Source: Calditrichaceae bacterium
Lineage (GTDB): Bacteria; Calditrichota; Calditrichia; Calditrichales; JBFXGD01
DNA length: 64,000 nucleotides
Direction: 5' to 3'
Assembly: GCA_050173015.1 (NCBI GenBank)
Contig: JBFXLE010000024.1
Span: 1 to 64,000 of the forward strand
The notes under the pieces were generated by a model. The model saw nothing but the letters and a program-made list of their open reading frames with translations. It did no database searches and was not told the DNA's origin. This document shows, piece by piece, positions 10,232 through 55,739 of this stretch. The position numbers and the translations under genes are program-made. Positions within the stretch are counted from its first letter, which is position 1. Every line of letters starts with the position of its first letter.

Positions 10232-10249
10232 TTGTGAACATTTTCCCAT
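10232..10249. promoter_or_regulatory. Rex-like operator upstream of the rseC-rnf operon
   Basis: TTGTGAA-CATT-TTCCCAT versus Rex consensus TTGTGAA-N4-TTCACAA (2 mismatches). Confidence 0.45.
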
Positions 10250-10271
10250 ATGTTGGAAAATCTCAATCTTC

Positions 10272-10312
10272 AAAAAAAAAGCGGCATGAGAAAAACACAT
10301 CTCACACCGCTT
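10272..10312 (-). terminator. Intrinsic terminator after the oxidoreductase operon
   Basis: A-tract + GCGG-ca-TGAGA...TCTCA-ca-CCGCTT hairpin. Confidence 0.6.
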
Positions 10313-10335
10313 CCCGATTCTTTTGGGGGGAATCG

Positions 10336-11775: not shown

Positions 11776-11799
11776 ATTTATCTACCTCTTATATTTTCA

Positions 11800-12846
11800 T
11801 TACTTCAGGAGTAATTTGGTACGTTCCAGTAATTCTTCAGTTGATGGGACAACCCCGCCCATCCGGTTGTAAAACTCAACCGGACAGTTTCCGCTCACCG
11901 CCAACCGGACATCATCCACCATCTGACCGTTACTTAATTCCACAACAAGAAATTTCTTGACCTTACGGGAAAGTTCATTTATCCGTTCTGATGGGTACGG
12001 AAATAATGTAATCGGCCTTAGAAGACCTATTTTCACTCCATCCTTCCTAAGCTTCTCGACAACTGTCTTGAGAATTCTGGAAACTATTCCATATCCCATG
12101 ACTACATATTCGGCATCTTCAAGCATGAACTCTTCTTTTCTTAGTTCATTTTCCTCGATTTTAAGATATTTTTTCTGCAAACGCCGGTTATGTTCTTCCA
12201 GTTCTTCCGGATCAAGATATATACTCGAAATCAGATTCTTTTTGCTTTCCTTATCGGCGTAAAGCGCCCAGTCATGACGCGGTAACTTTGTGACCGGTTC
12301 TCCGAATTCAACCGGTTCCATCATTTGCCCGGTATAACCATCTGCGAGAACATAGACAGGTGTACGGTATTTTTCGGCCAGATCAAATGCCAGCTGAGTC
12401 AGATCAGACATTTCCTGCGCGCTGTTTGGCGCCAAAACCGGACATTTATAATTTCCATGCCCGCCGCCCTTGACCACCTGATTGTAATCTGATTGTTCAG
12501 GAGCAATATTGCCCAGTCCCGGTCCGCCGCGCATCACATCAACGATGACGCAGGGTAATTCCGCGCCCGCTGCATATGAGACGCCTTCCTGTTTCAGGCT
12601 GATTCCCGGACTTGAGGAGGCGGTCATCGATCGCACGCCCCCGCTGGCCGCTCCGTAAACCATATTGATCGCCGCCACTTCACTCTCGGCCTGTAAAAAC
12701 GTTCCGCCGACAGCAGGTAGATATTTCGCCGCCGTTTCGGCTATTTCGCTTGCCGGGGTAATCGGATAGCCAAAATATACACGGCATCCGGCGAGAACAG
12801 CCCCGCGAACCACGGCGTCATTTCCTTTGAGCAGTATTTTCGACAT
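11800..12846 (-). CDS. vorB: 2-oxoisovalerate:ferredoxin oxidoreductase alpha-type subunit
   Basis: [42 protein letters not shown]. Confidence 0.88.
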
Positions 12847-14074: not shown

Positions 14075-15445
14075 TTAGGCGGAATAAATGATACCGTATT
14101 TATTTATTAAACGGTGCATGGTTCGCCGGTCTATTCCGCAGGCGTCCGCGGCCCGGGTTATATTTCCATTGTATTTTTTTAAATAATTTGTGATATATTT
14201 TTGTTCAAATGTTTCAAGAACCTGTTCCTTTGCTTCCCGGTACGGCATATGCAAAATCTTGTCTAAAATCGCTTCCGCGTTTTTATAGAGAGCGGGTGGA
14301 AGATCTTCCAAACGAATATCGCTTCCCTGGCAAAGATAAAATGCCCTGGTCACGATATTTTGTAGTTCACGCACGTTCCCGGGCCAATGATAATTTATCA
14401 AAGACTCCATTGCGTCTTCAGCGATTCTGATAATATTTTTATCTTCTTTTCTTCTCAATTCATCAAGAAAATGCTCCGCGAGACACTGAATGTCTTCCGG
14501 TCGCTCTCTCAGAGGCGGCACTTCTATATTGATCGTGTTTAACCGGTATAAAAGATCCTTCCTGAGCCCCTTCTCACTCACCATCACTTCCAGATTTTTA
14601 TTGGTAGCGCTGATCACTCTCACATCAACCGGAATTTCCTCCTTGCCGCCCACACGGCGAATTTTCCGTTCTTCGAGCATTCTGAGCAATTTAACCTGAA
14701 GATTAAGCCCCAGATCTCCTATTTCATCCAGAAAAAATGATCCCTTATCCGAAAATTCTACAAGCCCCGGTTTTGTCCTGTTGGCGCCGGTAAACGCCCC
14801 TCTTTCATATCCAAAGAGCTCACTTTCGAATAAATTCTCCGGCAGCGCCGCGCAATTAACAGGTATAAACGGAAATTCCGCGCGTTTACTCAGACGATGA
14901 ATACTCCTTGCGATCAGCTCTTTTCCGGTTCCGCTCTCACCGGTGATCAAAACATTCGCCTGCCCCGATGCCACCTTTCTCACCATCTCAAGAATATCCT
15001 TCATCTTCTCACTCACAAAAATGATATCCGGAAATTCTTTTTGAAGTTGATCTATTTCCAGGGAATCAGAGTTTGATCCGTTTCTGCCGGTAAAGGCCCT
15101 GGACAGCGAATTCATCAGTTTTTTTGAAGTAAACGGCTTTTCGATAAAATCGAATGCCCCCAGACGCATAGCCTCTACACTCGATTCTATAGTGCCATAT
15201 CCGGAAATGACAATAACAAAGATATCAGGGTAATCGGACTTAACTTTTTTTAAAATTTCCAGGCCGGAAATGGATGGCATTTTCAAATCGCAAATCACCC
15301 CGTCATAATTTCCTATGGCCAGAGCATCCAAAGCTTTTCGGCCATCCTGAAAAAGCTCAAGTTCATACTGATTGTTCCTGGATAGTAATTTTCTCAGGCT
15401 GATCAGCATTTCTTCTTCGTCATCAATAATCATTATTCGAATCAT
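14075..15445 (-). CDS. NtrC-family sigma54-dependent response regulator (REC-AAA+-HTH)
   Basis: IIDDE..CDLKMP receiver, GESGTGKE, GAFTGA, WPGNVREL, Fis-type HTH. Confidence 0.95.
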   Translation of the reverse strand: MIRIMIIDDEEEMLISLRKLLSRNNQYELELFQDGRKALDALAIGNYDGVICDLKMPSISGLEILKKVKSDYPDIFVIVISGYGTIESSVEAMRLGAFDFIEKPFTSKKLMNSLSRAFTGRNGSNSDSLEIDQLQKEFPDIIFVSEKMKDILEMVRKVASGQANVLITGESGTGKELIARSIHRLSKRAEFPFIPVNCAALPENLFESELFGYERGAFTGANRTKPGLVEFSDKGSFFLDEIGDLGLNLQVKLLRMLEERKIRRVGGKEEIPVDVRVISATNKNLEVMVSEKGLRKDLLYRLNTINIEVPPLRERPEDIQCLAEHFLDELRRKEDKNIIRIAEDAMESLINYHWPGNVRELQNIVTRAFYLCQGSDIRLEDLPPALYKNAEAILDKILHMPYREAKEQVLETFEQKYITNYLKKYNGNITRAADACGIDRRTMHRLINKYGIIYSA

Positions 15446-15446: not shown

Positions 15447-16922
15447 CTAGCCTACCGGAAATGTTATCTTAAATGAAGTTCCGTTATTTAATTCACTGGA
15501 AACTTCTATTCTGCCATTGTGATTTTTTATGATATTATTAACAATGTATAATCCAAGACCCGTGCCCTTTCCGGGCGGCTTGGATGAGTAAAACGGTTCA
15601 AATATCTGATGCAGATTTTTGGGCCCGATTCCGCTGCCGTAATCCTTAATTTCAATCTCAATAACAGTTCCGGTCTCCAGCTCTTTATTTCTAAAAATAA
15701 CATCAATTGAGGATCCCTTCTCGGACGCGTCAATCGCGTTGTTAATGAGATTGGTGAAAGCCTGCTCCATTTGTATTGCTTCACCCCATTTATTCCAGTC
15801 TCCACTGTTATGACTGACATTTACCTTAATATCATATTTGTCAAGACGCGGTTGCAGTACTTTCAGGCTTTCAAGCAAGGTTTTCTTGAGATCAATCGAC
15901 TGAAAATTAGTGGGTAATTTCCGACTGTATTTTAGGATACTGGATGTTATTTTTGAAACTTTTTCGATCTGATTGACGATGGTGTCCAAATCTTCTTCAT
16001 ATTCCTTATAATTATCCAAATCATGAAAAACGCTTCTGAGATAATCAGCCCTTGTAAGTATTATTCCTGATGGATTATTTATTTCATGAGCGAGTTCAGC
16101 GGTTAATTCCCCCAGTGTTACAAGACGATCCGCCCTTTGCAACTGTTCCAGATGATAATCATCGAGTTGCTTACGGGATTGATTAAGTTTATTCACCATG
16201 TCATTGAATTGGTCCTGAAGTGTCCTGATCTCAGTAGACCTGTTTACGTCTAACCGGACGGTTAAATTGCCTTTTTCAACCTCATCCATGGCTCCGGCCA
16301 AATTCTTAATAGGCCTGTTGATGTAGCGGTTGAACATGAGATACAAAACACTCCCCAGAATTAGAATCAGTAAGACACCGCTGACCAGAGTCAATCTCAA
16401 TGTATCCCTGAATCTGTATTCCGCCTGCGTGAGATTAAGATCCACATCAACGAAACCGTTAATTTTTTGACCGGCATCATGACAGGTATGGCATTCATTT
16501 CTGTTGATTATCGGAAACATGGCAGAATAAACCGATCCATTATGATAAAATTGGGTGAGTGATGTGTCCTGATCTATTTTAAGATTTTCGTGATAAAGAA
16601 CCTCTTTTATATTTTTATTGATGACTGATTTATGATTGGAATGGGTCACAATACCCTTAGAATTTATGATACTGACCCTGTACACACTATTCAGCTGAGC
16701 AATTTTATCCACAAAAAAGGTCAGTTTTTCGGGCCTCCCGTCCATCATGGCATGTGAAACATCGCAGCGGATGATATCGACAGTCATATTGACCATGTAT
16801 TTGTAAGTTTCCTGGAAGTTATCTCTTATTTTCGAAATTAATAGATAAGTCGGTATTCCGACAGTTACGAGAATTAGAAGTGTAGTGAAGGTGATAAACA
16901 ATGTTTTCAGCGATTTAAACAT
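15447..16922 (-). CDS. Sensor histidine kinase with periplasmic c-type heme motif, HAMP, HisKA and HATPase domains
   Basis: Two TM helices flanking 'PIINRNECHTCH'; LAHEINNP, NLINNAIDA, DYGSGI, GKGTGLGL. Confidence 0.93.
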   Translation of the reverse strand: MFKSLKTLFITFTTLLILVTVGIPTYLLISKIRDNFQETYKYMVNMTVDIIRCDVSHAMMDGRPEKLTFFVDKIAQLNSVYRVSIINSKGIVTHSNHKSVINKNIKEVLYHENLKIDQDTSLTQFYHNGSVYSAMFPIINRNECHTCHDAGQKINGFVDVDLNLTQAEYRFRDTLRLTLVSGVLLILILGSVLYLMFNRYINRPIKNLAGAMDEVEKGNLTVRLDVNRSTEIRTLQDQFNDMVNKLNQSRKQLDDYHLEQLQRADRLVTLGELTAELAHEINNPSGIILTRADYLRSVFHDLDNYKEYEEDLDTIVNQIEKVSKITSSILKYSRKLPTNFQSIDLKKTLLESLKVLQPRLDKYDIKVNVSHNSGDWNKWGEAIQMEQAFTNLINNAIDASEKGSSIDVIFRNKELETGTVIEIEIKDYGSGIGPKNLHQIFEPFYSSKPPGKGTGLGLYIVNNIIKNHNGRIEVSSELNNGTSFKITFPVG

Positions 16923-17073: not shown

Positions 17074-17089
17074 GGGGCAATTCTGTCCC
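17074..17089. promoter_or_regulatory. Putative enhancer (UAS) site 1a
   Basis: GGGGCA-ATTC-TGTCCC, matches the GGGACA-N4-TGTCCC motif found four times in this locus. Confidence 0.65.
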
Positions 17090-17160
17090 TATGTCGCGTA
17101 TTGGTTACAGTTCATTATCTCATTAAAAAACAATATCTTATCCAAATTAATGAGAATTTA

Positions 17161-17180
17161 TTGGGACAATATTGTCCCAA
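17161..17180. promoter_or_regulatory. Putative enhancer (UAS) site 1b, perfect 20-bp palindrome
   Basis: TTGGGACAATATTGTCCCAA. Confidence 0.75.
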
Positions 17181-17243: not shown

Positions 17244-17269
17244 TTGTGATATTTGGCACAATATATGTA
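17244..17269 (+). promoter_or_regulatory. Sigma54 promoter (non-canonical -12) overlapped by a Rex/CRP-like palindrome
   Basis: TGGCACAATATATGTA (GG 17255-56, GT at -12); TTGTGAT-ATTT-GGCACAA at 17244-17261. Confidence 0.65.
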
Positions 17270-17305: not shown

Positions 17306-17695
17306 ATGAAAAGACTTCTGGTTTTGTCCTCCGAGTCCGGACTCGTCGAGGATTTTCAGAGTACGCTGAATGGCGTTTCCAAAATAGAAGTAAAATGTTA
17401 TCAGAGCTGTTGTGAGCTGATGGAGGGTTTTCTGACGCTGCACACAGATATGGTATTATTGGATATTGATCTTTTAAAAGAACGGGTGACACATCTCATC
17501 AATGTGCTCAAGCTGATAAAAAGCTCTGTCGTTCTTATCCTGATCCTGTCTGAAGAACACATCTCGATTTGTAAACAAGCATTACCTCTGGGAATCCATT
17601 CATATCTCATAAAACCGGTCTCAGGTAAAGAATTATCCAGAATTGTTAATCCGATCCTGCAACATGGTAATGTAAAAATTGAAAAAGATATATGA
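17306..17695 (+). CDS. Atypical single-domain receiver (REC) protein, cassette 1
   Basis: RBS AAGGA; MVLLDIDLL (phospho-Asp), LILILS, YLIKPVS; paralog of 20253-20609. Confidence 0.8.
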   Translation: MKRLLVLSSESGLVEDFQSTLNGVSKIEVKCYQSCCELMEGFLTLHTDMVLLDIDLLKERVTHLINVLKLIKSSVVLILILSEEHISICKQALPLGIHSYLIKPVSGKELSRIVNPILQHGNVKIEKDI

Positions 17696-17774: not shown

Positions 17775-19805
17775 ATGAACAAAAAATTACTCTTAATTCT
17801 GGCCATGTTTCTTATCTGCGCTTCACAAATCTTTGCGCAAACAATGAAACTTGGAACCTATGGCGTGTCTCCCCGAGATGTCGTTGCCGATACGGAGGAT
17901 ATTTTTGACAGGGCTTTTAACGGCTTAAACAATGTCGGTATTCAGACACAGATGTATCTTAAGGGAACGCTTAGCGGAGCAAGTCTCACCAATCCAACCT
18001 GGACCGTCACTGCCAAGCCTTCCGGATCATTAGCTGATTTTGGCGCTCTGGCAGTAATTGACACCTCGTCAGAGGTTGTTGTCTTCACTCCTGATTTGGC
18101 GGGTACCTACAAAGTTACCTTTTCAGACGGTGAACTTTCCGCCGAACTGACCATCAACGCGGCAAAATACGTCGGTGTTTATGAAAATTGTACCAATTGT
18201 CATGGGCCTAACACTTTTTTGGATGATATGGTTACTCCCTGGGAGCAAACCGGTCATTATTGGTTATTTGAAGAGGCAATGATGGGAACCGCCAGTGATC
18301 ATTACGGCCCGAATTGCGTCAGCTGTCATACCACCGGGTATGATCTTATGGCCACAAACGATGGCTTTGATGACCGCACTCAGCTAATCGATGGTATTGA
18401 TTCAGTGTGGGCATTCCCCGATTCACTGGCTCCCGGAACATGGGATGCGCTGGTTGCTCTTTATCCTAATTCAATGCACCTTGCCAGAATTCAGTGTGAA
18501 AGTTGTCATGGTCCCGGTGACCGCCACAATGGTAATACAAACGACGCCAGAATGATTGTTGATCTAAAATCGGACAACTGCGCCTGGTGTCATGATTCCG
18601 GAACGCACCATGTCTATCCCGAGCAATGGGATGTCTCAATGCATGGAAACGCCACATCCTATCCGACCGGCGCCGGTCGTTCATCCTGTGTCCCGTGTCA
18701 TACAGGCATCGGATTTGTCCAAAGCTTAAAAGGAGTCACTCCGCTAAACACGGACTACATGCCAATTACCTGCGCGGCTTGTCATGATCCGCACAACCTG
18801 ACCAACGAACATCAGGTAAGGACCGTCGAAGCAACTTTATCCAATGGTGAAGTGGTAACTCAGGGCGGACTTGGCAAGCTTTGTATGAACTGCCATAAAA
18901 GCCGCCGCGATGCCGTAGCCTACACCAATGCCTATCTGACTAACCTGAGCAGTCATTACGGACCGCATGGTAGTTTGCAAGGCGATATGCTGATCGGTAC
19001 AAACGCGGTCACATTTGGAAAAGATTTACCTTCGTCTCCGCATATGGCAGCCACCGAGAACGCCTGCGTTGATTGTCATATGTATCCCGGACACGCTGAC
19101 GAAAGCGGTGAGGTCATATTAAGCGGATCGCACTCCTTTGCCATGAGCACTCCCGATGAAGTTGATAACGTCGCCGCTTGCGCGGATTGTCACGGCAATG
19201 TGGGCACTTCATTCGATGAGAAAAAATACTACATCAATGGAAATGCCGATCATGACGGTGACGGGACCGCCGAAGGATTACAACACGAAGTTGAAGGACT
19301 ATTGGAAGAACTCGCGCTGCTGCTCCCGCCAAAAGGCGAACCGACAGTGGCGATCGACGATTCTTCAGTCACTCTGGTTGAAGCACAGGCCGGTTACAAT
19401 TATTTCTTTGTTGAGGAAGACGGAAGTTTTGGTATCCATAACCCGGCATACACCATTGCACTTTTGAAAGAATCTATCGCCGCGGTAAACGCGACGGGTA
19501 TTTCGGACGATTATAATATTATTCCGGTGAACTATGCTTTAGCTCAGAACTATCCAAATCCATTCAACCCGGAAACGAACATTCATTTTTCACTGGTAAA
19601 ATCCGGTCATGTGTCTCTCGTGGTTTACAACACACTCGGGCAGAAAGTAGCCACTCTTATTGACGACAATATGAATGCCGGCGCGCATGACACAAAATTT
19701 ATCGCGTCTAATCTTTCGTCCGGTGTTTATTTCTACCGTCTGACAGTAACCGCAAATGATGGAAAACAATTTGAGTCTATGAAAAAAATGATATTGATGA
19801 AGTAA
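17775..19805 (+). CDS. Secreted nine-heme c-type cytochrome with T9SS (Por) type C-terminal sorting domain
   Basis: RBS GGAGG; signal peptide; 9 CxxCH (CTNCH, CVSCH, CESCH, CAWCH, CVPCH, CAACH, CMNCH, CVDCH, CADCH); C-terminal 'YALAQNYPNPFNPET..VYNTLGQKVATL..LSSGVYFYRL..KKMILMK'. Confidence 0.92.
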   Translation: MNKKLLLILAMFLICASQIFAQTMKLGTYGVSPRDVVADTEDIFDRAFNGLNNVGIQTQMYLKGTLSGASLTNPTWTVTAKPSGSLADFGALAVIDTSSEVVVFTPDLAGTYKVTFSDGELSAELTINAAKYVGVYENCTNCHGPNTFLDDMVTPWEQTGHYWLFEEAMMGTASDHYGPNCVSCHTTGYDLMATNDGFDDRTQLIDGIDSVWAFPDSLAPGTWDALVALYPNSMHLARIQCESCHGPGDRHNGNTNDARMIVDLKSDNCAWCHDSGTHHVYPEQWDVSMHGNATSYPTGAGRSSCVPCHTGIGFVQSLKGVTPLNTDYMPITCAACHDPHNLTNEHQVRTVEATLSNGEVVTQGGLGKLCMNCHKSRRDAVAYTNAYLTNLSSHYGPHGSLQGDMLIGTNAVTFGKDLPSSPHMAATENACVDCHMYPGHADESGEVILSGSHSFAMSTPDEVDNVAACADCHGNVGTSFDEKKYYINGNADHDGDGTAEGLQHEVEGLLEELALLLPPKGEPTVAIDDSSVTLVEAQAGYNYFFVEEDGSFGIHNPAYTIALLKESIAAVNATGISDDYNIIPVNYALAQNYPNPFNPETNIHFSLVKSGHVSLVVYNTLGQKVATLIDDNMNAGAHDTKFIASNLSSGVYFYRLTVTANDGKQFESMKKMILMK

Positions 19806-19823: not shown

Positions 19824-19857
19824 AAGCCTTTCCGCCTCCGGGCGGAAAGGCTTTTTT
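19824..19857 (+). terminator. Intrinsic terminator
   Basis: AAGCCTTTCCGCC-tccg-GGCGGAAAGGCTT followed by a T-tract. Confidence 0.92.
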
Positions 19858-20025: not shown

Positions 20026-20041
20026 GTGACATTCATGTCTC
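20026..20041. promoter_or_regulatory. Putative enhancer (UAS) site 2a
   Basis: GTGACA-TTCA-TGTCTC. Confidence 0.6.
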
Positions 20042-20113
20042 ACTATTAATCTCGCGTCAAAACAACATATATATTATAAAAACAATTACTTAGAATTATT
20101 TGCTCACTCTATA

Positions 20114-20129
20114 GAGACAGTCTTGTCCC
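20114..20129. promoter_or_regulatory. Putative enhancer (UAS) site 2b
   Basis: GAGACA-GTCT-TGTCCC. Confidence 0.65.
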
Positions 20130-20196: not shown

Positions 20197-20222
20197 TTGT
20201 GATTCTTGGCACAATCCTTGCA
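20197..20222 (+). promoter_or_regulatory. Consensus sigma54 promoter overlapped by a Rex/CRP-like palindrome
   Basis: TTGGCACAATCCTTGCA (GG 20208-09, GC 20220-21); TTGTGAT-TCTT-GGCACAA at 20197-20214. Confidence 0.85.
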
Positions 20223-20252: not shown

Positions 20253-20609
20253 ATGAAGCATGTAATTATACTCACAGACGAGGAGATATTTGAGGAAAAA
20301 CCGGATTCAGATTTTGATTTTGAGATTCAGACATATAAAGCCTGTTGTACATTTCTCGAAAGTTTTCTCTCAAATCATTACGAACTGGTTATTCTCGATA
20401 TCGATTTGCTGGAACAACGGGTCATGCATATTCTAAAGATTATTAAATTATTAAAAAACTCTGTGCCGGTGATCCTGGTTCTCTCTGACAGTCATATTGC
20501 GACGTGCAAAAAGGCTCTGCCTTACGGAATACTGGCATACTTAATGAAACCTGTGTCACAGAATGAGTTTCATGAGCAATTACAACGATACCTGAGCGAA
20601 AAAATCTGA
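20253..20609 (+). CDS. Atypical single-domain receiver (REC) protein, cassette 2
   Basis: RBS AAGGA; LVILDIDLL, VPVILVLS, YLMKPVS; paralog of 17306-17695. Confidence 0.8.
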   Translation: MKHVIILTDEEIFEEKPDSDFDFEIQTYKACCTFLESFLSNHYELVILDIDLLEQRVMHILKIIKLLKNSVPVILVLSDSHIATCKKALPYGILAYLMKPVSQNEFHEQLQRYLSEKI

Positions 20610-20681: not shown

Positions 20682-22418
20682 ATGTTAAGGAGATTAATTT
20701 CTGTCACAATGCCTTTGGTATTTCTTGGTTCATTATTCTTCGGAGGCTGTACAGATGAGACGGAAAAGATTGTCGAAGTCACCGTAAGGGATACTGTCAC
20801 CGTTCATGACAGCATATTTGTGAATGTGATTCCGGTTGTCGTAAATGATATCGTTACAAATCCAGATTCCATCGCTGTCGGCGGCACAATCACATTGACG
20901 GCTGAAACTGATGTTGTCGCTGAAGTCGGAACATTAAAATACTTCTGGGTATCAAGTGATGGAAAATTTGACAAAACCGAAGGTGATACGGTTACATGGA
21001 AAGCTCCGGATGAGGCCGGAACCTATGAGATTGCCGTTCATATCACGGATGGTACCTACATCGGAGTAGGCTCGAGAAATATCGGTGTGGGAATGTATGC
21101 CGCCATCACAGACACATTCTATGTCGGCGGCGCCAAATGCGCCACATGTCATAGCGGTAAAGCGGCTGAATGGCAGGAAACCGGTCATGCGCACGCCTGG
21201 GCAACGCTTCAGAGCAGTGATCATGCCGCTTCATATTGCAATAAATGCCATACGGTAGATTTCAACGAGGTCCCGGGTAACGCCGGATATGATGACGCGC
21301 CGATCGCCATGTTCGAAAATGTCCAGTGTGAAAATTGTCATGGCCCGGGTTCAAAGCATCCGGACTTCACCGCTGAAGACAGAGCTATTACCGTTGATAT
21401 CAGCGCGGAAAACTGCACCACATGCCATTCCGGCGAACATCATCCTTTTAATTCAGACTGGGTAGATTCCAAACATAATTTTGATCCCGCGACCGCGGCA
21501 CACGGCGCGCCGGCGAACAGCTTTTGCCAGCCCTGCCACAGCGGTTCCGGCTTTATTGCTGCTTTCGGTGGCGGTGTTGATCATGATCCCGCGGATCCCG
21601 GTAATGTTTCCTGTTCGACATGTCATAATCCGCACAGTGAAGAAAATCCATTCCAGCTGCGCACACTCGCTGATGTCACTTCCGTGGTCGCCAACAGCGA
21701 ATCCCAGACCATCGCGATCGCCGGAAATGGTCAGCTCTGCGTACAGTGCCATCACGCGCGTCGTTCCGCTGATACTCAAATTGAGACCGGTTATGCTCAT
21801 TTTGGGCCTCACGGTTCACCTCAGGGTGATATGCTGGCGGGAATAAGCGCCTATGAAGGATTTGATTTTGAATTCAGCGGCAAATTTACAAACCATTATG
21901 TGATCGAAAACGGCTGTACGACCTGTCATATGAACGCCACCCCTTATCCGAATGCCAATACGGGGCATACTTTTGAAGCGACGACAAGCTCCTGCGGAAA
22001 ATGCCACGGAACGGTCAGTGATTTTGAGGATATTATGGCAAACAATGACTTTGATGGTGACGGCACAACCGAAGGTTTACAGCTGGAAATTGACGGATTG
22101 ATGGCAAACCTTACATCAGAACTGGTAGCAGCGGGTCTTGATACCGTTGGCATGGATATTCTTACCGCGCTTTCGGAAACAATGAACGACACAACTTTAG
22201 CAGGCGAGCCGACAGCAACGGCACAGATCATCAGAACCGGTGGTTACAATCTGGCTTTTGTACTTGATGATGGAAGCCGCGGTATTCATAATCCTGAGTA
22301 CGCTGTTCAGATTCTGCAGCAGTCAATTCTCTACATGCAGTCTCACAATATGTCAAAGTCGAAAATGACAAATCTGACATTATTAAGTTCACGTGATAAA
22401 GCGGTAAGGAATTTTTAA
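20682..22418 (+). CDS. Nine-heme c-type cytochrome lipoprotein with N-terminal Ig/PKD-like domain
   Basis: RBS AGGAGG; lipobox FFGG-C; 9 CxxCH (CATCH, CNKCH, CENCH, CTTCH, CQPCH, CSTCH, CVQCH, CTTCH, CGKCH); DGSRGIHNP. Confidence 0.92.
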   Translation: MLRRLISVTMPLVFLGSLFFGGCTDETEKIVEVTVRDTVTVHDSIFVNVIPVVVNDIVTNPDSIAVGGTITLTAETDVVAEVGTLKYFWVSSDGKFDKTEGDTVTWKAPDEAGTYEIAVHITDGTYIGVGSRNIGVGMYAAITDTFYVGGAKCATCHSGKAAEWQETGHAHAWATLQSSDHAASYCNKCHTVDFNEVPGNAGYDDAPIAMFENVQCENCHGPGSKHPDFTAEDRAITVDISAENCTTCHSGEHHPFNSDWVDSKHNFDPATAAHGAPANSFCQPCHSGSGFIAAFGGGVDHDPADPGNVSCSTCHNPHSEENPFQLRTLADVTSVVANSESQTIAIAGNGQLCVQCHHARRSADTQIETGYAHFGPHGSPQGDMLAGISAYEGFDFEFSGKFTNHYVIENGCTTCHMNATPYPNANTGHTFEATTSSCGKCHGTVSDFEDIMANNDFDGDGTTEGLQLEIDGLMANLTSELVAAGLDTVGMDILTALSETMNDTTLAGEPTATAQIIRTGGYNLAFVLDDGSRGIHNPEYAVQILQQSILYMQSHNMSKSKMTNLTLLSSRDKAVRNF

Positions 22419-50811: not shown

Positions 50812-53034
50812 TTATAATTTTTTCCTGTTCGTCCTAAAATAAATGGAAGTGATAAACCCGGAAATCATAATCACCGTCCCAAGCCATAAGAGGTTTATAA
50901 GCGGTTTGATTGAAACCTCGACCGCGAGTATTTCTTTACCGTTCGCCGCGTTGGCGGATCCTTTTTGCCTTGCCACGCCCAGCAAAAGAGATTTACTCTC
51001 GACATTAATACTCTTTATAAACACGGAGCGGTCCGTGCCCGGAAGTGTTGCCGGATATATTTCCTTCTCATCTCCACGCATACCGATCGCCGGTTTAATA
51101 ATTTCCTTCAGACCTTCCTTGCCGTTTCCGGTTTCGATTACCGCGGCGATTTTCATGTCGGAACTTGCCATTTCGTGCGAGTTCATATCATATCCGGTAA
51201 AGACAAACGTATAATCACCGTAAACCAGCGGTTCATTCTTTTTTAACTCAAGATCATCCGTTTGCGGGATGGTCTGATCGGCAGGTATAATCTGAATCGG
51301 CGAAATATACAAGTCCTTAAAAATCATGTTCTGTACCGAGGGCGCGACCATATACGCCTGGCTGTACTCACTCCAGTAAAATTTCGCGAAGGTTTCTTTT
51401 GAGTCATTAATAGTGATAAGCACCTTATCCTTGCCGTCCGGAGACGCCAGTTTGCCGCCGTATTTCAAATCGTATCCCATCACATTGCGGTTCGTATCCA
51501 TCGGAAGCGTCACCTTGACCGATGAATCATATACAGACGAGGTGATGATACCGATTAACATCAACCCGATTCCGACATGAGTGAGATACCCTCCGAAAGC
51601 ATAGGTCTTGGCTTTGATCATTCTGTAAACAATCTCACCGTTTATTAAAATAACAAATACGGCAAGAATGGCGATAATCAACGGCACGATATCTCTTATC
51701 CCGAGCGCGAACATGACCGCGCCAAACAAAAGACTGACAACGCCCTGGATAATAACACTTTTTATCTTTTGCGCGCTCTCCCTTTTCCAGCTTAACAAGG
51801 GGGCCAGAGAAATCAGTAACGCGATCAGAATAGCGATCGGACCTGCAAGGGTGTTATAATACTCTATCGAAACATTGGAAGCCGTTCCAAACATCCCTGT
51901 AATTAATGGCGAAGAAGTGCCAAAAAAAGTGAAAGTCGCCAGAACCAACAAGGTTAAAATTCCGAACAACATAAAACTTTCCCTCGTAAAGAAAGCCGTC
52001 TGTACCTTCTCACTTTTAACTTCCTGTACCCTGAACATAAATGTCAGCGCGGCAAGACCGGTAAAAAACACTACAAATCCGATGAGATAAGTCGATAATT
52101 CAGAAGCGCCAAATGAATGGACGGAAAAATCGGTCAACACGCCGCTTCGGGTGAGGAAACTTCCATAGAGCACCAGCACAAAAGTCAGCAGAGCCAGAAA
52201 AATATTCGTTTTCTTCATTCCTCCCTGCTTTTTTTGAATCATGAAACCGTGAATCAACGCCAAAGATGTCAGCCAGGGGATCAGAGAACTGTTCTCCACC
52301 GGGTCCCATCCCCAGTATCCGCCCCAACCGAGCGTTGTGTATGCCCAGTATCCGCCAAGAATGATTCCGGTTCCGAGAGATAATCCCACAAATAGAGCAA
52401 ACGGAAACGCGCTTTTTATCCAGTCATTGTAATTCCTGCGAATCAATGCCGCCATGGCAAAAGCAAAAATGATCATCGTCGAAGAATAGCCGGAAAAGAG
52501 GATCGGCGGGTGGATGGTCATCCATGGATCCTGGAGTAGCGGATTAAGACCATTCCCGTCGAATGGCGCTATACCGGCCTGAAAACCTGACGGGTTAATC
52601 TCCCATACATAAGTGAACGGATTTTTCTTGATCAAAATCATAACGATAAACGCCTGAACAAGATTCATAAAACTCATGACAAGAGGCTCATCCTCTTTTC
52701 TTGAACGAATGATGATCAGCCCGTAAACCGAACCCAAGAGAAGCCATAAAAGGAATGTGCCCTCCTGACCCGCCCAAAAAGTTGAGATAAGATAATAAAG
52801 CGTCAGATCTCTTGATGAATAGCTGAATACATACATCCATTCAAATTTATGATTTATGATGCCCCACATGAGCATTGATGATTGAAGCACAATAAGAGCG
52901 GTCGCGGTGTAAAATCCAAGACGGGCTATCTTCAGAAGCGCGTCTTCTCCGCGTTTATGATATAAATAGTAAGAGGCGATGCTTATGATCAGGGCGACAA
53001 AAGTTAATGAAGTTGCCGTAATTCCTATTATCAT
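50812..53034 (-). CDS. ccmF: Cytochrome c maturation heme lyase CcmF
   Basis: WAGQEGT, GLNPLLQ..IHPP, WGGYWGWDPVEN, LTRSGVL..VHSF; ATG overlaps the ccmE TGA. Confidence 0.95.
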   Translation of the reverse strand: MIIGITATSLTFVALIISIASYYLYHKRGEDALLKIARLGFYTATALIVLQSSMLMWGIINHKFEWMYVFSYSSRDLTLYYLISTFWAGQEGTFLLWLLLGSVYGLIIIRSRKEDEPLVMSFMNLVQAFIVMILIKKNPFTYVWEINPSGFQAGIAPFDGNGLNPLLQDPWMTIHPPILFSGYSSTMIIFAFAMAALIRRNYNDWIKSAFPFALFVGLSLGTGIILGGYWAYTTLGWGGYWGWDPVENSSLIPWLTSLALIHGFMIQKKQGGMKKTNIFLALLTFVLVLYGSFLTRSGVLTDFSVHSFGASELSTYLIGFVVFFTGLAALTFMFRVQEVKSEKVQTAFFTRESFMLFGILTLLVLATFTFFGTSSPLITGMFGTASNVSIEYYNTLAGPIAILIALLISLAPLLSWKRESAQKIKSVIIQGVVSLLFGAVMFALGIRDIVPLIIAILAVFVILINGEIVYRMIKAKTYAFGGYLTHVGIGLMLIGIITSSVYDSSVKVTLPMDTNRNVMGYDLKYGGKLASPDGKDKVLITINDSKETFAKFYWSEYSQAYMVAPSVQNMIFKDLYISPIQIIPADQTIPQTDDLELKKNEPLVYGDYTFVFTGYDMNSHEMASSDMKIAAVIETGNGKEGLKEIIKPAIGMRGDEKEIYPATLPGTDRSVFIKSINVESKSLLLGVARQKGSANAANGKEILAVEVSIKPLINLLWLGTVIMISGFITSIYFRTNRKKL

Positions 53035-53402
53035 ATTTTTGTTCCTTCTTCCTGGTATTTTGACGGACATTTGACTAGAATTTCTTTCGCGTGAAAATTC
53101 CCCTCTTTATACTGTCCGACGCATACCACTTCGGTGGCCTGGTCAAAATTTCCCGGTTTCGCTCCGTCATATACCACATCCACCAACAAACCTTTGTCAT
53201 CCTTCAACTTAAATACAAAAAGATTCTTATCTAAATCGAAATTTCCGTTATCGACACGGGTCCCTTTCACCTGCACCACACTGCCTGATTTTACAGCATC
53301 TTCGATGGATACATAGGGGGTCAGCGTGGAATTAAATGAAATACCCGCCCAAACAGTGAAACCAATGATAATTAAACCACCGATTATATATTTTAAACGC
53401 AT
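53031..53402 (-). CDS. ccmE: Heme chaperone CcmE, CxxxY type
   Basis: N-terminal TM, V.Y.G.KP, 'LVKCPSKY'. Confidence 0.93.
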   Translation of the reverse strand: MRLKYIIGGLIIIGFTVWAGISFNSTLTPYVSIEDAVKSGSVVQVKGTRVDNGNFDLDKNLFVFKLKDDKGLLVDVVYDGAKPGNFDQATEVVCVGQYKEGNFHAKEILVKCPSKYQEEGTKI

Positions 53403-53525
53403 AAAACGTCTCCTTTCGATTATTTAATACTGTATCAACCGCATACAACCCGCAGTTTATACAAACAAAAAACAGAATTGAATGATTTCATCTATATCAA
53501 ATAGTTTCATCCATCAGGACTTTAC

Positions 53526-53654
53526 TCACTCTCCTGATACTTCATTTGCCCGCTTTTTTAACTTCTTTACCTGACCATTCAGATAAAATACATATCCGAA
53601 AACCCCCGTCCATACAATCATATTTATAATGAGCACCACATAAATCGGTTCCAT
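53526..53654 (-). CDS. ccmD: CcmD-family small membrane protein (absent from the ORF track)
   Basis: Read by hand: MEPIYVVLIINMIVWTGVFGYVFYLNGQVKKLKKRANEVSGE (42 aa), RBS GGAG, directly after the ccmC stop. Confidence 0.8.
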   Translation of the reverse strand: MEPIYVVLIINMIVWTGVFGYVFYLNGQVKKLKKRANEVSGE

Positions 53655-54353
53655 TTATATCTCCACTTTGTTTAATTTCAGTTTTACCATAATTAAATCA
53701 AATTTGAGTTTTAAAATCCAAAAGAATAAGACGGTGAATCCGGACAGGGACGACAGAAAAACAGTCAGCATTTTTCCGTCCATGTGGATTTTTCCTTCCT
53801 GGTTAATAAGCGGATCCGGATGCAGAGATGAATAAATCCGCGGAACAATAAAAATGAAGAACGGTACCGTTACAAACGCCAGCAGAGAGTAAACCGCGGA
53901 TAAAGCCGCCTTACGGTCAGGTTGTTCTATCGCCGATCTCAGCGCGAAATACGCGGCATAAATCAAGAGCAAAATAAAAATAGATGTTTCACGCGGATCC
54001 CAGTTCCAGAATGAACCCCAGCTTGCCTTCGCCCAGATCGAACCTGTCACTGTTGCCAGCACACCAAAAAGAAGCCCCATTTCATTGGCCCCTTCGGCAA
54101 ACATGTCATATTTTATATCACGTTTTTTAAGATAGAGAATGCTAAAAAAAGCAGCGACAAAAAACGCGATAACGGTTATCCATGCTGTCGGCACATGAAA
54201 ATATAATACCCGTGTGTATTCGCCAAGACCTTTGGCAATTGGAGCGTAAAGAAACGCGCCCAGAATGACGAGCGTAATCCAGGCAAATAATATAAGCTTC
54301 CAGCCAATTTGCAGTACAGTTTTACCCGGAGAATCTTTTTTTTCTGATACCAT
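53655..54353 (-). CDS. ccmC: Heme delivery protein CcmC
   Basis: YFHVP, WGSFWNWDPRET (WWD), SLHP. Confidence 0.95.
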   Translation of the reverse strand: MVSEKKDSPGKTVLQIGWKLILFAWITLVILGAFLYAPIAKGLGEYTRVLYFHVPTAWITVIAFFVAAFFSILYLKKRDIKYDMFAEGANEMGLLFGVLATVTGSIWAKASWGSFWNWDPRETSIFILLLIYAAYFALRSAIEQPDRKAALSAVYSLLAFVTVPFFIFIVPRIYSSLHPDPLINQEGKIHMDGKMLTVFLSSLSGFTVLFFWILKLKFDLIMVKLKLNKVEI

Positions 54354-54472
54354 ATTAGTCTTCCCTGGTTAATTCTTGATCTTGTTTTAATCTCCTGAAT
54401 GTCTATCTGATTTTAATACCAAGAAGAACTTCAATATTCTCAATTTCATTCCTCTTAAATTCTTTTTATCTA

Positions 54473-55132
54473 TCATTCGTTCCAGACAAATTCAAAAAGC
54501 AGAACCGATGCTGTCAGAACCACCACGCCATAAGCAAATAATGCCTGGAGTTCACTGGAAGCTGCCCAGAAATTAGTCTCAGACGCGGCGATTTTTGTGG
54601 CGCTGATCCCGCTGACTATCACAGGTAACAATATAGGAAATGCCAATACCGTAAACAACGCTCCTTTCGCGCTTGCTTTCGATATAATCGCGGCAACCAT
54701 GGTACCGCCTGAAGCAAGACCAAAGCTTCCCAACATCAACACGGTAAAAAAAAGTAAAAAATTCTGAATCTGCAAATCCATTACAGCGAGAAAAAGGGGG
54801 ATAATGATGATTTCCAGCGCGAACAGGAGGATTAAATTGAAGAAAAATTTGCCAAAAAAAACACTGGAGGCGGTCGCGACAAGCTTCAGTGTATCCGCGG
54901 TATGGGTTTCTTCCTCTCTTACAAAAATGTGGGATAAACCCGACATGGATGAAAAGAAAAGAATAATCCACAGAAGAGCCGCCATAATCTCCTGCCCCGC
55001 GGAATAGGTACCGATAGAAAATGAAACCGCTGTCAGAGTCACGACGGCGAAAAGCAGAATCGCGTTTATCGCGTAGCGGGTTTTAAATTCCTGCCGGACA
55101 TCTTTTAAAAATATATACCAGGCTTTACGCAT
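54473..55132 (-). CDS. ccmB: Heme exporter permease CcmB
   Basis: KDVRQEFKTR, FVREEE, LAFPILLP; six TM helices; position in the operon. Confidence 0.9.
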   Translation of the reverse strand: MRKAWYIFLKDVRQEFKTRYAINAILLFAVVTLTAVSFSIGTYSAGQEIMAALLWIILFFSSMSGLSHIFVREEETHTADTLKLVATASSVFFGKFFFNLILLFALEIIIIPLFLAVMDLQIQNFLLFFTVLMLGSFGLASGGTMVAAIISKASAKGALFTVLAFPILLPVIVSGISATKIAASETNFWAASSELQALFAYGVVVLTASVLLFEFVWNE

Positions 55133-55739
55133 GAATCGGAACCGTCCAATCTGCAAAATCCAGGTCATCGGGATCGTTGGTGGCGATAATCAGTATTTTT
55201 TCCTTCTTTTGATCACGCATAATATCATAAATTGTATTGATTCCCTGCTCATCAAGATTGGATCTGGGTTCGTCCACGAAGAGCACTTCGGGATCATCCA
55301 ACAGCGCGAACACATATTTTAACCGCTGTTTCATGCCTGATGAATAGGTTTTCACATCGTCCTCTTCACGACCGGCAAGATTTAATTTTTTCATTAATCC
55401 GGCGATCTTTTCAGAGCTGTTTTTCACACCTCTCATTTTCGCGAAAAATTCGAGATTTTCCCGCGCGGTCAAATCCTGATATAGTTCCAGATAAGGTCCC
55501 ACCAGCCCAATGTGCTGAAAGATTTTTTCCCGTTCTATGGGCTTACCGTTTTTTTTGTAGGTCACGGTTCCGTGGGTTGGCTGTATTAGATTGGAAAGCA
55601 CTCTCATTAAAGTAGTCTTACCCGAGCCGTTGGGCCCGACGATCGCCATACTCTCTCCGCTGGAGATAGAGAAATTAATTTTTTTGAGAATTCGCTTTTC
55701 TCCGAAATATTTAGTGATGTCGCCGGCAATTATTTCCAT
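55125..55739 (-). CDS. ccmA: Heme exporter ATPase CcmA
   Basis: GPNGSGKTT, YSSGMKQR, FVDEP; first gene of the ccm operon. Confidence 0.88.
   Translation of the reverse strand: MEIIAGDITKYFGEKRILKKINFSISSGESMAIVGPNGSGKTTLMRVLSNLIQPTHGTVTYKKNGKPIEREKIFQHIGLVGPYLELYQDLTARENLEFFAKMRGVKNSSEKIAGLMKKLNLAGREEDDVKTYSSGMKQRLKYVFALLDDPEVLFVDEPRSNLDEQGINTIYDIMRDQKKEKILIIATNDPDDLDFADWTVPIHA

Follow-up and report, generated by a model that had tools for sequence, protein, structure and literature searches.

[quoted passage not shown] Its gene lies at 17775..19805 on the plus strand of the window, by which we mean the whole 64,000-nucleotide stretch of DNA analysed here; it starts with ATG, encodes 676 amino acids and shares its place with no other long ORF. 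The reading that we favour, and consider reasonably probable, is that CYT1 is an OcwA-family surface cytochrome which is exported by the T9SS, fed by a conduit, switched on by a sensor kinase and sigma-54, and used to reduce extracellular acceptors. New here are a lipoprotein paralog, CYT2, adjoining CYT1, the location of both operons, each preceded by a putative sigma-54 promoter and a pair of palindromes, next to genes for a predicted heme-c kinase and an NtrC-type activator, and the position of OcwA-like genes next to porin-cytochrome modules in five of the nine related loci examined.

Results

CYT1 has nine conserved heme motifs and a heme-free N-terminal domain

A script count of the CYT1 translation gives nine CxxCH motifs, starting at C139, C181, C241, C269, C305, C333, C370, C431 and C469, and no CxxCK. 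In an alignment of 50 family members the cysteines of these motifs never vary, and neither do their histidines except H309, which is kept in at least 90% of the sequences. The description of CYT1 as a nine-heme cytochrome in a first-pass annotation of this DNA is thus borne out by both the count and the conservation of the motifs in the family. Taken together, nine conserved heme motifs and two HMM matches above curated cut-offs are far beyond chance.

The same annotation had reported a Sec signal peptide, a heme-free beta-rich N-terminal region, a DxDGDG motif and a 'DGSFGIHNP' segment, all of which are present. Residues 1-21 (17775..17837, plus strand), MNKKLLLILAMFLICASQIFA/QT, resemble by eye a Sec-type signal peptide, with cleavage likely after IFA. 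They are followed by a predicted beta-rich domain, PKD/Ig-like by homology (residues 22-125, 17838..18149, plus strand), and residues 22-138 contain no heme motif. W76, P82, S85, D107, G110 and Y112 of this domain are conserved in the family alignment, and the corresponding stretch of one relative, P0121 (residues 45-107), matches the K319L-like PKD model PF22352 with 47.1 bits; a profile of the N-terminal domain gave no match in the PDB. The OcwA-like nine-heme core and C-terminal helical region, delimited by alignment invariants and the HMM alignment to OcwA, span residues 126-580 (18150..19514, plus strand). They include DHDGDG at residues 492-497 (nt 19248-19265, plus strand), in which all 50 aligned sequences agree at D492 and G497 and at least 90% of them have D494, and DGSFGIHNP at residues 549-557 (nt 19419-19445, plus strand), in which G553, H555 and N556 are invariant. 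Downstream of the gene, a G+C-rich hairpin with a run of T behind it (19824-19857, plus strand) resembles an intrinsic terminator and would mark the end of the CYT1 operon, the first of the two.

The closest solved relative of CYT1 is OcwA

Among solved structures the best relative of CYT1 is OcwA (TherJR_2595 of Thermincola potens JR, PDB 6I5B), a cell-surface terminal reductase (PMC6703420). Sequence similarity between the two is low, as reflected in an E-value of 6.7e-6 in a single-sequence search, whereas a profile built from 50 CYT1 family members matches 6i5b_A with an E-value of 3.8e-31 over chain positions 17-502. This is in line with the earlier comparison to OcwA. In the HMM alignment all nine heme motifs of CYT1 pair with those of OcwA, in the same order; CVDCHM at heme 8 is common to both proteins, as is a G(I/V)HN motif in the predicted C-terminal helical region. 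The HH above heme 2 of OcwA aligns to H278-H279 of CYT1; at the second HH site of OcwA CYT1 has H394 and H398 and no adjacent pair, while the family consensus there is often HH, and both H279 and H398 are conserved in at least 90% of the 50 aligned sequences. Eight conserved non-motif histidines and M436 of CYT1 fit the OcwA ligand scheme, although they would equally fit nine six-coordinate hemes. Unlike OcwA, CYT1 has the N-terminal PKD-like domain, the DxDGDG motif and the T9SS tail. OcwA in turn has a beta-sheet insert (residues 75-156) between hemes 1 and 2, with a spacing of about 110 in the aligned chain, which is absent in CYT1, where C139 and C181 are 42 residues apart.

The second match of the family profile in the PDB is 6qvm_A, 'Multiheme cytochrome cf' (681 aa; E 5.2e-21, query 208-565). 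The span of the OmhA gene of Carboxydothermus ferrireducens corresponds to 681 codons (PMC7829351), and for this reason we take the chain to be OmhA, although its PDB code does not appear in that paper. OmhA is described as an 11-heme protein of a Gram-positive organism and is without a CTD (PMC7829351), in contrast to the nine hemes and CTD of CYT1. The same paper groups nonahemes of Gram-negative bacteria with OcwA, and some of these may already be CTD-bearing proteins. The profile also matches NrfA (E 2.8e-13) over the C-terminal bundle, which agrees with the first-pass remark that the GxHNP segment recalls the bundle of NrfA-type cytochromes, as well as octaheme nitrite reductases (about 1e-11), MccA and c554. 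With NrfA, ONR and MccA, CYT1 aligns over the last hemes and the predicted helical bundle (query 413-571, E 2.8e-13 to 2e-7), and the sequence alignment covers OcwA positions 410-502 as well as the bundle of NrfA. Unlike NrfA, CYT1 lacks the CxxCK catalytic heme, has nine hemes and is predicted to be extracellular. The Pfam searches suggested earlier gave a narrow pass for PF13435 (21.6 against a cut-off of 20.8) and a value below cut-off for the NrfA family PF02335 (16.1 against 24.1), the latter being expected because CYT1 is a relative of NrfA and not NrfA itself. We rejected an assignment to NrfA proper, given the missing CxxCK and the PF02335 score, and one to the decaheme MtrC/OmcA family, from which only the generic model PF22113 (42.6 bits) matched and TIGR03507 was not among the matches listed.

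The T9SS domain of CYT1 is widespread in its family and under selection

The end of the linker and the predicted T9SS type A CTD occupy residues 585-676 (19527..19802, plus strand), finishing in KKMILMK. PF18962 scores 37.5 bits (cut-off 27) over residues 593-660 of 676 and TIGR04183 scores 39.2 bits (cut-off 23) over residues 593-659, the matches corresponding to nt 19551-19754, whereas the type B-like CHU_C model reaches 20.1 against a cut-off of 27. The C-terminal sorting domain that had been proposed within 19500-19802 is thus recognised by both models, and the proposal would have fallen had the domain failed to score as a Por sorting domain. The family profile also matches the CTD of PorU in 6za2. 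In one same-genus ortholog pair (dS about 1) dN/dS is 0.022 for the CTD and 0.040 for the heme core; purifying selection constrains the CTD no less than the core.

A CTD ends 192 of 239 near-full-length relatives of CYT1, a share that is inflated because the matches were ranked with the CTD included in the query, and in the nearest ESM Atlas cluster, with 1184 members, 98% carry PF18962. The fusion of cytochrome and CTD is, on these domain matches, a trait of a large family and not peculiar to CYT1. The relatives without a CTD carry Big_2, PKD, Ig, BACON, TSP3 or FG-GAP modules, which are typical of surface proteins. Named relatives are MAGs only, and we identified no cultured organism with a CYT1 ortholog. 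In the literature searched we found no paper linking the T9SS to multiheme cytochromes, and a term search for 'cytochrome' had no match in a 2023 review of T9SS effectors (PMC10202324).

Machinery for export and heme attachment in the genome

We infer that CYT1 would be exported by the T9SS. A search of the genome with PF18962 returned 53 matches, 50 of them above cut-off, giving 50 CTD proteins, and SprA/Sov (868 bits), PorU (833 bits) and PorV (270.6 bits) all score above their cut-offs; PorV was also found in 15 of 15 relatives. For the motor and ring, PorM/GldM had no match in the genome with TIGR03517 or PF12081, PorL/GldL reached only 15.9 bits with TIGR03513 and was not recognised, and the best PorK/GldK score was 95 against 350 bits (TIGR03525), with no gldLMN-like neighbours. 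Likewise, none of 61 sampled Calditrichota genomes reached the cut-off of PF12081 (GldM_1st). These searches covered PorL, PorM and PorK and used models trained on Bacteroidota, so that the Calditrichota versions may have diverged. The 50 CTD proteins in a genome without recognisable PorL, PorM or PorK raise the question of what powers type IX secretion outside Bacteroidota. The genome also has one secretin gene and may therefore encode a T2SS.

For heme attachment, Pfam matches reveal a Ccm system I operon on the minus strand of the window (50812..55739), comprising CcmA (55125-55739), CcmB (54473-55168), CcmC (53655-54353), CcmE (53031-53402) and CcmF (50812-53070, PF01578), and the genome search found no ResB. 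This is in line with the earlier suggestion that CYT1 is matured by Ccm.

CYT1 lies beside a lipoprotein paralog and a two-component system

The first gene of the CYT1 operon, REC1 (17306..17695, plus strand), encodes a 129-aa single-domain receiver which scores 29.9 bits with PF00072, just below the cut-off of 30.2, and whose phospho-acceptor Asp, Ser and K-P are kept in eight aligned homologs beside cytochrome genes. Its paralog REC2 (20253..20609, plus strand; 118 aa, 38.1 bits with PF00072, 44.5% identity by BLASTP) is likewise a single-domain receiver and precedes CYT2 (20682..22418, plus strand). CYT2 is a 578-aa nonaheme paralog with nine CxxCH motifs and 31.5% identity to CYT1 over residues 109-549; it passes PF02335 (26.8 bits), has a predicted lipoprotein signal (..FFGGC/TDETE) and lacks a CTD. 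Three acidic residues stand at positions +2 to +6 of the predicted lipoprotein, and 10 of 118 candidate lipoproteins of the genome, a pattern-selected set excluding CYT2, have at least three; we treat this stretch as a lead only towards a possible lipoprotein export signal.

Divergent from the CYT1 operon lies a gene for a sensor histidine kinase (15447..16922, minus strand) with PF21563 (30 bits, cut-off 27), HAMP, HisKA and HATPase_c domains and one CxxCH (CHTCH) in its predicted periplasmic sensor domain, for which the best PDB matches, 3b42 (E 0.17) and 3b47 (E 0.41), are not significant. Next to it is a gene for an NtrC-type sigma-54 enhancer-binding response regulator (14075..15445, minus strand) with REC, AAA+ and HTH_8 domains (PF00158 229.7 bits, PF00072 93.9, PF02954 37). 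A kinase with one CxxCH and an activator are both adjacent to the cytochrome genes in seven related loci (G000, G001, G002, G008, G015, G028 and G040), and in G010 the activator alone is adjacent.

Both operons are preceded by sigma-54-type elements and twin palindromes

Upstream of REC2 we found a putative sigma-54 promoter with perfect consensus, TGGCACAATCCTTGCA (20207..20222, plus strand), the only zero-mismatch match in the window. A weaker -24/-12 element, TGGCAC-N5-ATGTA with a weak -12 and two mismatches (17254..17269, plus strand), stands 37 nt upstream of REC1 at a position paralogous to the 20207 site, and its sequence is kept in a same-genus genome; rpoN is present in the genome (421.7 bits). 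Sigma-54-like elements also occur upstream of orthologs in three other genera. In total, four of 15 gene sets have one, the background rate being 0.014 per 450 nt, and the strict pattern is absent upstream of the other 11.

Both elements lie downstream of paired palindromes of the form GGGACA-N4-TGTCCC, which we presume to be activator binding sites. The first pair (17074..17178, plus strand) consists of 17074-17089 with one mismatch and, 89 nt further on, the perfect 17163-17178, which is 91 nt upstream of the -24 element. The second (20026..20129, plus strand) comprises 20026-20041 with two mismatches and 20114-20129 with one. The window holds six matches, four of them in the two promoter regions, compared with 1.38 expected in the whole window. 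Genome-wide there are 13 sites with at most one mismatch, and only those upstream of CYT1 and REC2 are paired with a sigma-54-like element before genes. The genome search found no further members of a palindrome regulon and thus gave no sign of co-regulation with a porin-cytochrome conduit.

OcwA-like genes repeatedly adjoin porin-cytochrome modules

Searching genomes with full-length CYT1 returned mostly CTD-only matches, and the core alone was used as the query afterwards; the related-locus search of genome contigs was dominated by the CTD pattern, only L001-L005 being true core matches. In five of nine related loci examined, an OcwA-like gene adjoins a porin homolog and 11- or 12-heme cytochrome genes. 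The cytochrome is of the CTD type in G028 and L002 and of the lipoprotein type in G002, G015 and G040; no adjacent porin was seen in G000, G001, G008 and G010. OcwA-like genes of Calditrichota and beyond thus repeatedly adjoin such modules. In G040 the REC-CYT2 genes are followed by a whole equivalent of the C15 cluster of the host genome. This is one of the candidate porin-cytochrome clusters that the host genome holds on three other contigs, unlinked to CYT1, and it also contains two fused b/c cytochromes like CbcL. None of the three porin candidates belongs to a Pfam or NCBIfam family; for the C15 candidate, the ESM Atlas cluster name 'Porin family protein' provides no more than a lead. The co-occurrence of a C15-type porin with the CTD type is weak: the porin was found in seven of 10 genomes having that type, and in 15 of 31 others.

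Discussion

Our analysis leads us to propose that CYT1 acts at the cell surface. The apoprotein would cross the inner membrane by Sec, after which Ccm would attach the nine hemes and the protein would fold in the periplasm. The CTD would then hand CYT1 to the PorV and SprA translocon, and once PorU had removed the CTD, CYT1 would either stay anchored on the outside of the outer membrane or be set free. Passage of a folded protein would be in keeping with what a review describes for T9SS cargo, which folds in the periplasm, and with the secretion of GFP-CTD fusions (PMC5445135). At the surface CYT1 would receive electrons from trans-outer-membrane porin-cytochrome conduits and reduce acceptors outside the cell, for instance Fe(III)/Mn(IV) minerals, humics or shuttles. 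CYT2 would have an equivalent role but reach the surface as a lipoprotein. Expression of both may be activated by the kinase, its heme sensing a redox or ligand signal in the periplasm.

OcwA, however, also reduces nitrite and turns over hydroxylamine (PMC6703420), so that a soluble substrate for CYT1 is conceivable. CYT1 might accordingly act, at the surface or after secretion, as an enzyme that reduces or detoxifies nitrite, hydroxylamine or other oxyanions, rather than as a mineral or electrode reductase. It would do so at hemes with an open coordination site, comparable to hemes 2 and 5 in OcwA, which are five-coordinate under His-His motifs (PMC6703420). The alignment of the first HH to H278-H279 and the conservation of H279 and H398 would suit such an enzyme, as would the PF02335 matches of CYT2 and some relatives, the NCBI name of one of the relatives' clusters (nitrite reductase subunit) and the two narI genes in the genome; the eight non-motif histidines and M436 are compatible with it and with nine six-coordinate hemes alike. 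We nevertheless regard this as unlikely, in view of the missing CxxCK and the low PF02335 score of CYT1, a nitrite kcat for OcwA reported as 1 per minute (PMC6703420), the porin-cytochrome modules, not nitrogen-cycle genes, that are the neighbours in five loci, and no evident need for a nitrite reductase outside the outer membrane.

That PorL, PorM and PorK were not recognised in the genome, that GldM_1st reached its cut-off in none of the 61 sampled genomes and that we found no study of T9SS function in Calditrichota in the literature searched could instead mean that export in this lineage is not driven by the CTD, and that CYT1 stays inside the outer membrane, in the periplasm or on the membrane's inner face, as an electron carrier or reductase. 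This seems improbable to us, as the genome encodes 50 CTD proteins with SprA, PorU and PorV intact, PorV is found in all 15 relatives, and both the strong purifying selection on the CTD and its retention in 192 of 239 relatives are hard to explain if it is a dead signal. [quoted passage not shown] We judge inward transfer highly improbable, since we found nothing specific to electron uptake and the CbcL-like and NrfH-like membrane cytochromes in the genome and related loci argue against it. Such membrane cytochromes are quinol-oxidising modules of outward electron transfer.

The conduit-fed surface reductase that we favour would thus resemble OcwA in its proposed role as the outermost terminal reductase, although OcwA comes from a monoderm and has no CTD. 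A similar position, outermost and fed by a porin-cytochrome conduit, is held by MtrC/OmcA of Shewanella and OmcB/OmcC of Geobacter; these are lipoproteins of an unrelated fold family, in contrast to CYT1 with its T9SS signal, and the surface lipoprotein cytochromes of Shewanella are exported by the T2SS. OcwA itself is described as unrelated to MtrC, OmcA and UndA (PMC6703420). CYT2-type genes stand directly beside a porin gene and an 11- or 12-heme gene, as in pcc clusters (PMC4245776). With type A cargo of the Bacteroidota T9SS, such as gingipains and HBP35, CYT1 shares a Sec signal and a TIGR04183/PF18962 CTD with a K-rich final strand, and its host shares SprA, PorU and PorV. Unlike that cargo, CYT1 is predicted to be a covalently heme-loaded respiratory protein, in a phylum without recognisable PorL, PorM or PorK.

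Most of what is understood of extracellular electron transfer comes from Shewanella and Geobacter, with their lipoprotein cytochromes, and from a few Gram-positives. We tentatively suggest, at a little short of an even chance, that Calditrichota, and by extension Ignavibacteriota, KSB1 and Marinimicrobia, use a T9SS-like apparatus without a recognisable PorLMKN motor to export fully folded nine-heme holo-cytochromes, which would be fixed at the surface as the outermost layer of a Geobacter-type porin-cytochrome chain, under a switch of heme-c kinase, NtrC-type activator and sigma-54 and with a parallel lipoprotein route through CYT2. If true, extracellular electron transfer would have an architecture not described so far, and the T9SS would acquire a new cargo class, one with covalently bound cofactors. 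A large and mostly uncultured part of the FCB superphylum would gain a plausible route to mineral and electrode respiration, the nearest Atlas cluster alone counting 1184 members, and the CTD might be used to display redox proteins at the cell surface.

The locus of CYT1 and CYT2 also presents what appears to be a compact regulatory circuit, in which a heme-c sensor kinase would act through the NtrC-type activator, its presumed palindromic sites and the sigma-54 promoters. A comparable arrangement is known from Geobacter sulfurreducens, where BccR, a divergently encoded sigma-54 activator with REC, AAA+ and HTH domains, controls the cbcBA cytochrome operon, which also holds a small response regulator (10.1101/2021.04.15.440034). 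Both systems thus pair a sigma-54 activator with a cytochrome operon containing a small response regulator; the target of BccR is an inner-membrane bc cytochrome, whereas the targets here would be predicted outer-surface nonahemes, with a heme-c sensor kinase as part of the module.

A nonaheme OcwA-family cytochrome with a T9SS sorting domain

[quoted passage not shown] The frame is a real one of 676 aa. At its N-terminus is a Sec-like signal (MNKKLLLILAMFLICASQIFA/QT, judged by eye), followed by the heme-free region that had been proposed (residues 22-138); a script count confirmed nine CxxCH motifs and no CxxCK, and a hairpin with a T run lies 3' of the gene (19824-19857). The DxDGDG and 'DGSFGIHNP' motifs that had been pointed out are found at residues 492-497 (DHDGDG) and 549-557, with key residues that are invariant or nearly so in an alignment of 50 CYT1 relatives. 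The proposed type A C-terminal sorting domain (CTD) also held up, as residues 593-660 score above the curated cut-offs of both PF18962 (37.5 bits, cut-off 27) and TIGR04183 (39.2 bits, cut-off 23).

The suggested kinship with the nonaheme cytochrome OcwA was likewise borne out. The best solved relative of CYT1 in a single-sequence query is 6i5b_A (E 6.7e-6), and the profile of the 50-sequence alignment reaches it at E 3.8e-31 over chain positions 17-502, pairing the CxxCH motifs of both proteins one-to-one (9/9). Structure 6I5B is OcwA, which is described as a terminal reductase on the cell surface of Thermincola potens with two five-coordinate hemes, one His/Met heme and an NrfA-like three-helix bundle (PMC6703420). 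Like OcwA, CYT1 carries CVDCHM at heme 8 and a C-terminal G(I/V)HN region that aligns with its counterpart. In addition, H278-H279 of CYT1 align with the HH of the 6i5b_A chain and, given a constant offset of 29 between chain and published numbering, correspond to OcwA HH 281/282 over heme 2. In contrast, the beta-sheet insert of OcwA between hemes 1 and 2 is missing in CYT1 (spacing 42 versus ~110 residues), which has an N-terminal beta domain in its place; a profile of this domain found no match in the PDB, and the equivalent stretch of the relative P0121 scores as a PKD domain (47.1 bits).

The second match of the alignment profile was 6qvm_A ('Multiheme cytochrome cf', E 5.2e-21), probably OmhA of Carboxydothermus ferrireducens, judging by the 681 codons that its gene spans in PMC7829351; the PDB code itself is absent from that paper. 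Further matches were NrfA (E 2.8e-13, query positions 413-570), octaheme nitrite reductases, MccA, cytochrome c554 and the CTD of PorU in 6za2 (E 4.6e-5). An identity as NrfA was rejected, since CYT1 has no CxxCK and its PF02335 score of 16.1 is below the cut-off of 24.1. By sequence comparison, CYT1 is an OcwA-family protein.

Distribution of the CTD fusion

Judging from database relatives, fusion of a CTD to an OcwA-like nine-heme core is common. PF18962 occurs in all of the best 120 matches to CYT1 in a 90%-clustered collection, whose named sources are KSB1, Calditrichaeota, Ignavibacteriaceae, Fidelibacterota and 'FCB group' MAGs, and 462 representative clusters matched at E 1e-30 or better. 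We fetched 267 relatives and retained the 239 in which 380 or more of the 455 core positions are covered, dropping the other 28; a CTD stands at the end of 192 of the 239, and 98% of the 1184 members of the nearest ESM Atlas cluster carry PF18962, shares that are biased upward because the queries contained the CTD. Nine CxxCH motifs are present in 185 of the 239. NCBI annotates relatives as 'T9SS type A sorting domain-containing protein', in some cases as a nitrite reductase subunit; the name 'ammonia-forming cytochrome c nitrite reductase subunit c552', given to some CTD-bearing relatives (P0064 cluster), is probably an over-call from PF02335-like similarity.

The CTD-less relatives (47/239) have other tails or lipoboxes instead, and Big_2, PKD, Ig, BACON, TSP3 or FG-GAP modules were detected in 8 of 13 scanned CTD-less proteins (11 of the 47 and the proteins of loci L001 and L005). 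Two recurrent tails, F/Y-(F/Y)-R-V-x-x-x-P, often behind bacterial TSP3 repeats, and a C-terminal (D/N)-(V/I)-P-G-A-x-L-R-Y, were seen among P0164, P0180, P0182, P0198, P0206, P0223, P0231, P0249, P0129, L001 and L003, and may be other sorting or anchoring signals. Tandem forms of the core also exist, with 15-24 CxxCH in 819-1946 aa (P0121, P0122, P0124, P0129, P0139, P0145, P0162).

On a FastTree phylogeny of the core (235 tips, excluding 12 tandem forms with more than 11 hemes), the clade of lipoprotein paralogs branches outside the CTD-rich one. CTD state requires 11 changes on this tree, whereas 200 shuffles average 44, a clustering that kinship alone could yield. A core match occurs in 28 of 61 sampled Calditrichota genomes. 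Of these matches, ten are strong, in frames of 675-936 aa, and a CTD was seen in 8 of the 10 genomes (G054 and G066 lay outside that check); most remaining matches lie in frames of ~580-650 aa, the size of the lipoprotein paralog CYT2.

Regulation and gene linkage

CYT1 forms an operon with a 129-aa single-domain receiver (17306-17695), which is the first of the two genes. A paralogous operon downstream starts with a second receiver (118 aa, 20253-20609) followed by CYT2 (20682-22418; 578 aa), which has nine CxxCH and a lipobox (FFGGC), lacks a CTD and is 31.5% identical to CYT1. The sole perfect TGGCAC-N5-TTGCW of the window lies upstream of this second operon at 20207, and the paralogous sigma-54-type site at 17254 has two mismatches in its -12 part. 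Both promoters are preceded by two copies of GGGACA-N4-TGTCCC, 88-89 nt apart, with 91-93 nt between the proximal copy and the -24 element. The four palindromes account for 4/6 window matches (1.38 expected), and among the 13 genome-wide sites with at most one mismatch only the CYT1/CYT2 locus combines palindrome and sigma-54-like element before genes. The genome encodes rpoN, and genes for an NtrC-type sigma-54 activator and for a histidine kinase with one CxxCH within its periplasmic sensor domain (PF21563) are divergent from the CYT1 operon. Heme-c sensor kinases recur in this genome, as at C13:11024-14223, where the neighbours of a one-CxxCH kinase are a response regulator and a 13-heme cytochrome. 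In this genus, both small receivers contain an adjacent Cys-Cys pair (QSCCEL and KACCTF, respectively) that is missing in homologs from other genera.

Kinase (one CxxCH) and activator both adjoin the OcwA-like gene in this genome (G000) and in G001, G002, G008, G015, G028 and G040, and the activator alone does so in G010; five further orthologs (L076, L078-L081) are on contigs too short to judge regulator neighbours. A small receiver with a phospho-acceptor Asp stands beside the cytochrome gene at 6 loci, and a sigma-54-like element with at most one substitution lies upstream in 4 of 15 gene sets (background rate 0.014 per 450 nt).

At five of nine loci examined, the OcwA-like gene is linked to a porin-cytochrome module, G000, G001, G008 and G010 being those without such linkage. 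Downstream of the CTD-type gene of G028, and in the same orientation, lie a small ORF, a porin homolog and 12- and 21-heme cytochrome genes, with kinase, activator and a 6-heme NrfH-like membrane cytochrome divergent. The CTD-type gene of L002, from another lineage, has a porin end, a 12-heme cytochrome and a 14-heme lipoprotein upstream and a 6-heme gene downstream. In G002 and G015, a CYT2-type lipoprotein gene directly precedes a porin, an 11-heme cytochrome and a 7-heme lipoprotein, divergent from kinase, activator and a 17- or 19-heme CbcL-like gene. In G040, a pair of receiver and CYT2-type genes precedes the full equivalent of a cluster on contig C15 of G000.

This cluster (C15:33678-43723) comprises two cytochromes of 19 and 11 hemes fused to an FdnI-like cytochrome b domain, the architecture given for CbcL (10.1101/2021.04.15.440034), together with a 12-heme cytochrome, a porin-like gene, a 9-heme cytochrome with a weak ExtM match and a rhodanese lipoprotein, and the whole set is syntenic in G040 downstream of the CYT2-type gene. 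Three porin-like genes with no family match, the candidates of this genome, adjoin multiheme cytochromes at C15:39915-41111, C18:82799-84406 and C12:84256-86223. The C15-type porin is present in 7/10 genomes with the CTD-type gene versus 15/31 others, a weak co-occurrence. Pcc-like clusters are reported from Caldithrix (PMC6137239).

Proposed export and function

The explanation with the best support, which we think somewhat probable, is that CYT1 serves at the outer surface as the regulated terminal reductase of an extracellular electron-transfer chain. Maturation would fall to Ccm, for which a complete system I operon lies in the window at 50812-55739 (no ResB turned up in a search of the genome), and delivery to the T9SS translocon; along with export, we infer CTD cleavage, tethering, electron path and substrate. 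The sequence data themselves show what kind of protein CYT1 is, its signal, which machinery genes are present, that the CTD is under selection, how the promoters are built and how the genes are linked. CYT2 would do the same job by another route. The genome belongs to the Calditrichota, since the named best matches of the glutamyl-tRNA synthetase encoded in the window are Calditrichaceae (92% identity), Calditrichaeota or Calditrichota, Caldithrix abyssi and Calditrichia, interspersed with one KSB1 and one Caldisericaceae name. The 4.34-Mb assembly (97.5% complete) contains 53 PF18962 matches, 50 above cut-off. SprA scores 868 bits, PorU 833 bits and PorV, which was found in 15/15 relatives, 270.6 bits. 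T9SS cargo is described as folding in the periplasm, and GFP-CTD fusions as being secreted (review PMC5445135).

Other results do not fit so simple a scheme: GldM/PorM was not found in the genome with two models, GldL reaches 15.9 bits only, the best GldK-like match reaches 95 bits where the cut-off is 350 and lacks gldLMN-like neighbours, and GldM_1st reached its cut-off in 0/61 sampled genomes of the phylum. That CYT1 is a periplasmic protein with a non-functional CTD tag nevertheless seems improbable to us; dN/dS is 0.022 for linker and CTD versus 0.040 for the core in one same-genus pair (92% identity, dS ~1). An extracellular enzyme for soluble oxyanions is an unlikely alternative; OcwA is reported to reduce nitrite and hydroxylamine as well as iron oxides and shuttles (PMC6703420). 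A role in electron uptake we regard as very unlikely.

Roughly a dozen PorV-like genes that score below threshold (40-86 bits), several near CTD-protein genes (for example C39:16710-17249, C1:108502-109023, C30:10894-11502, C3:205818-207348 and C6:151933-152085), and a second PorU-like gene (C6:147554-151855) may represent specialised shuttles. The genome has one secretin gene, so that a T2SS may also be present.

Our search of a literature library found no paper joining T9SS or type IX secretion with multiheme cytochromes, and type IX secretion with extracellular electron transfer gave nothing on the subject as judged by title and abstract. The same was true of TIGR04183 with cytochrome and of a four-term query, where a passage on SAR406 glycoside hydrolases came up, and a term search of a 2023 T9SS effector review (PMC10202324) did not return the word 'cytochrome'. 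Gram-negative OcwA relatives are already in print (PMC7829351), and Figure 7A or the supplements of that paper may include such proteins. The finding is of value for the export route that it proposes, for a defined regulatory circuit and for the linkage with porin-cytochrome modules.

A second T9SS-tailed cytochrome is encoded at C25:1010-2458 (-) (L089:1013-2458; 482 aa, 8 CxxCH, PF18962 40.5 bits) beside an OmpR-type two-component pair, its best PDB match being OcwA chain positions 14-203 (E 2.1e-9). Two more T9SS-tailed proteins lie in the window at 469-2220 (-) and 58892-61087 (-), one with lamin-tail and CARDB domains and a CHU_C-type tail, the other with an FlgD-Ig/Por_Secre_tail end. 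The window also holds an Rnf complex (RnfA/E/G/D/C/B) with an RseC-like gene (4800-12846, -), beside a two-subunit 2-oxoacid:ferredoxin oxidoreductase, and the genome has two narI genes for the respiratory nitrate reductase gamma subunit (C20:32847-33509 and C3:70661-71308).
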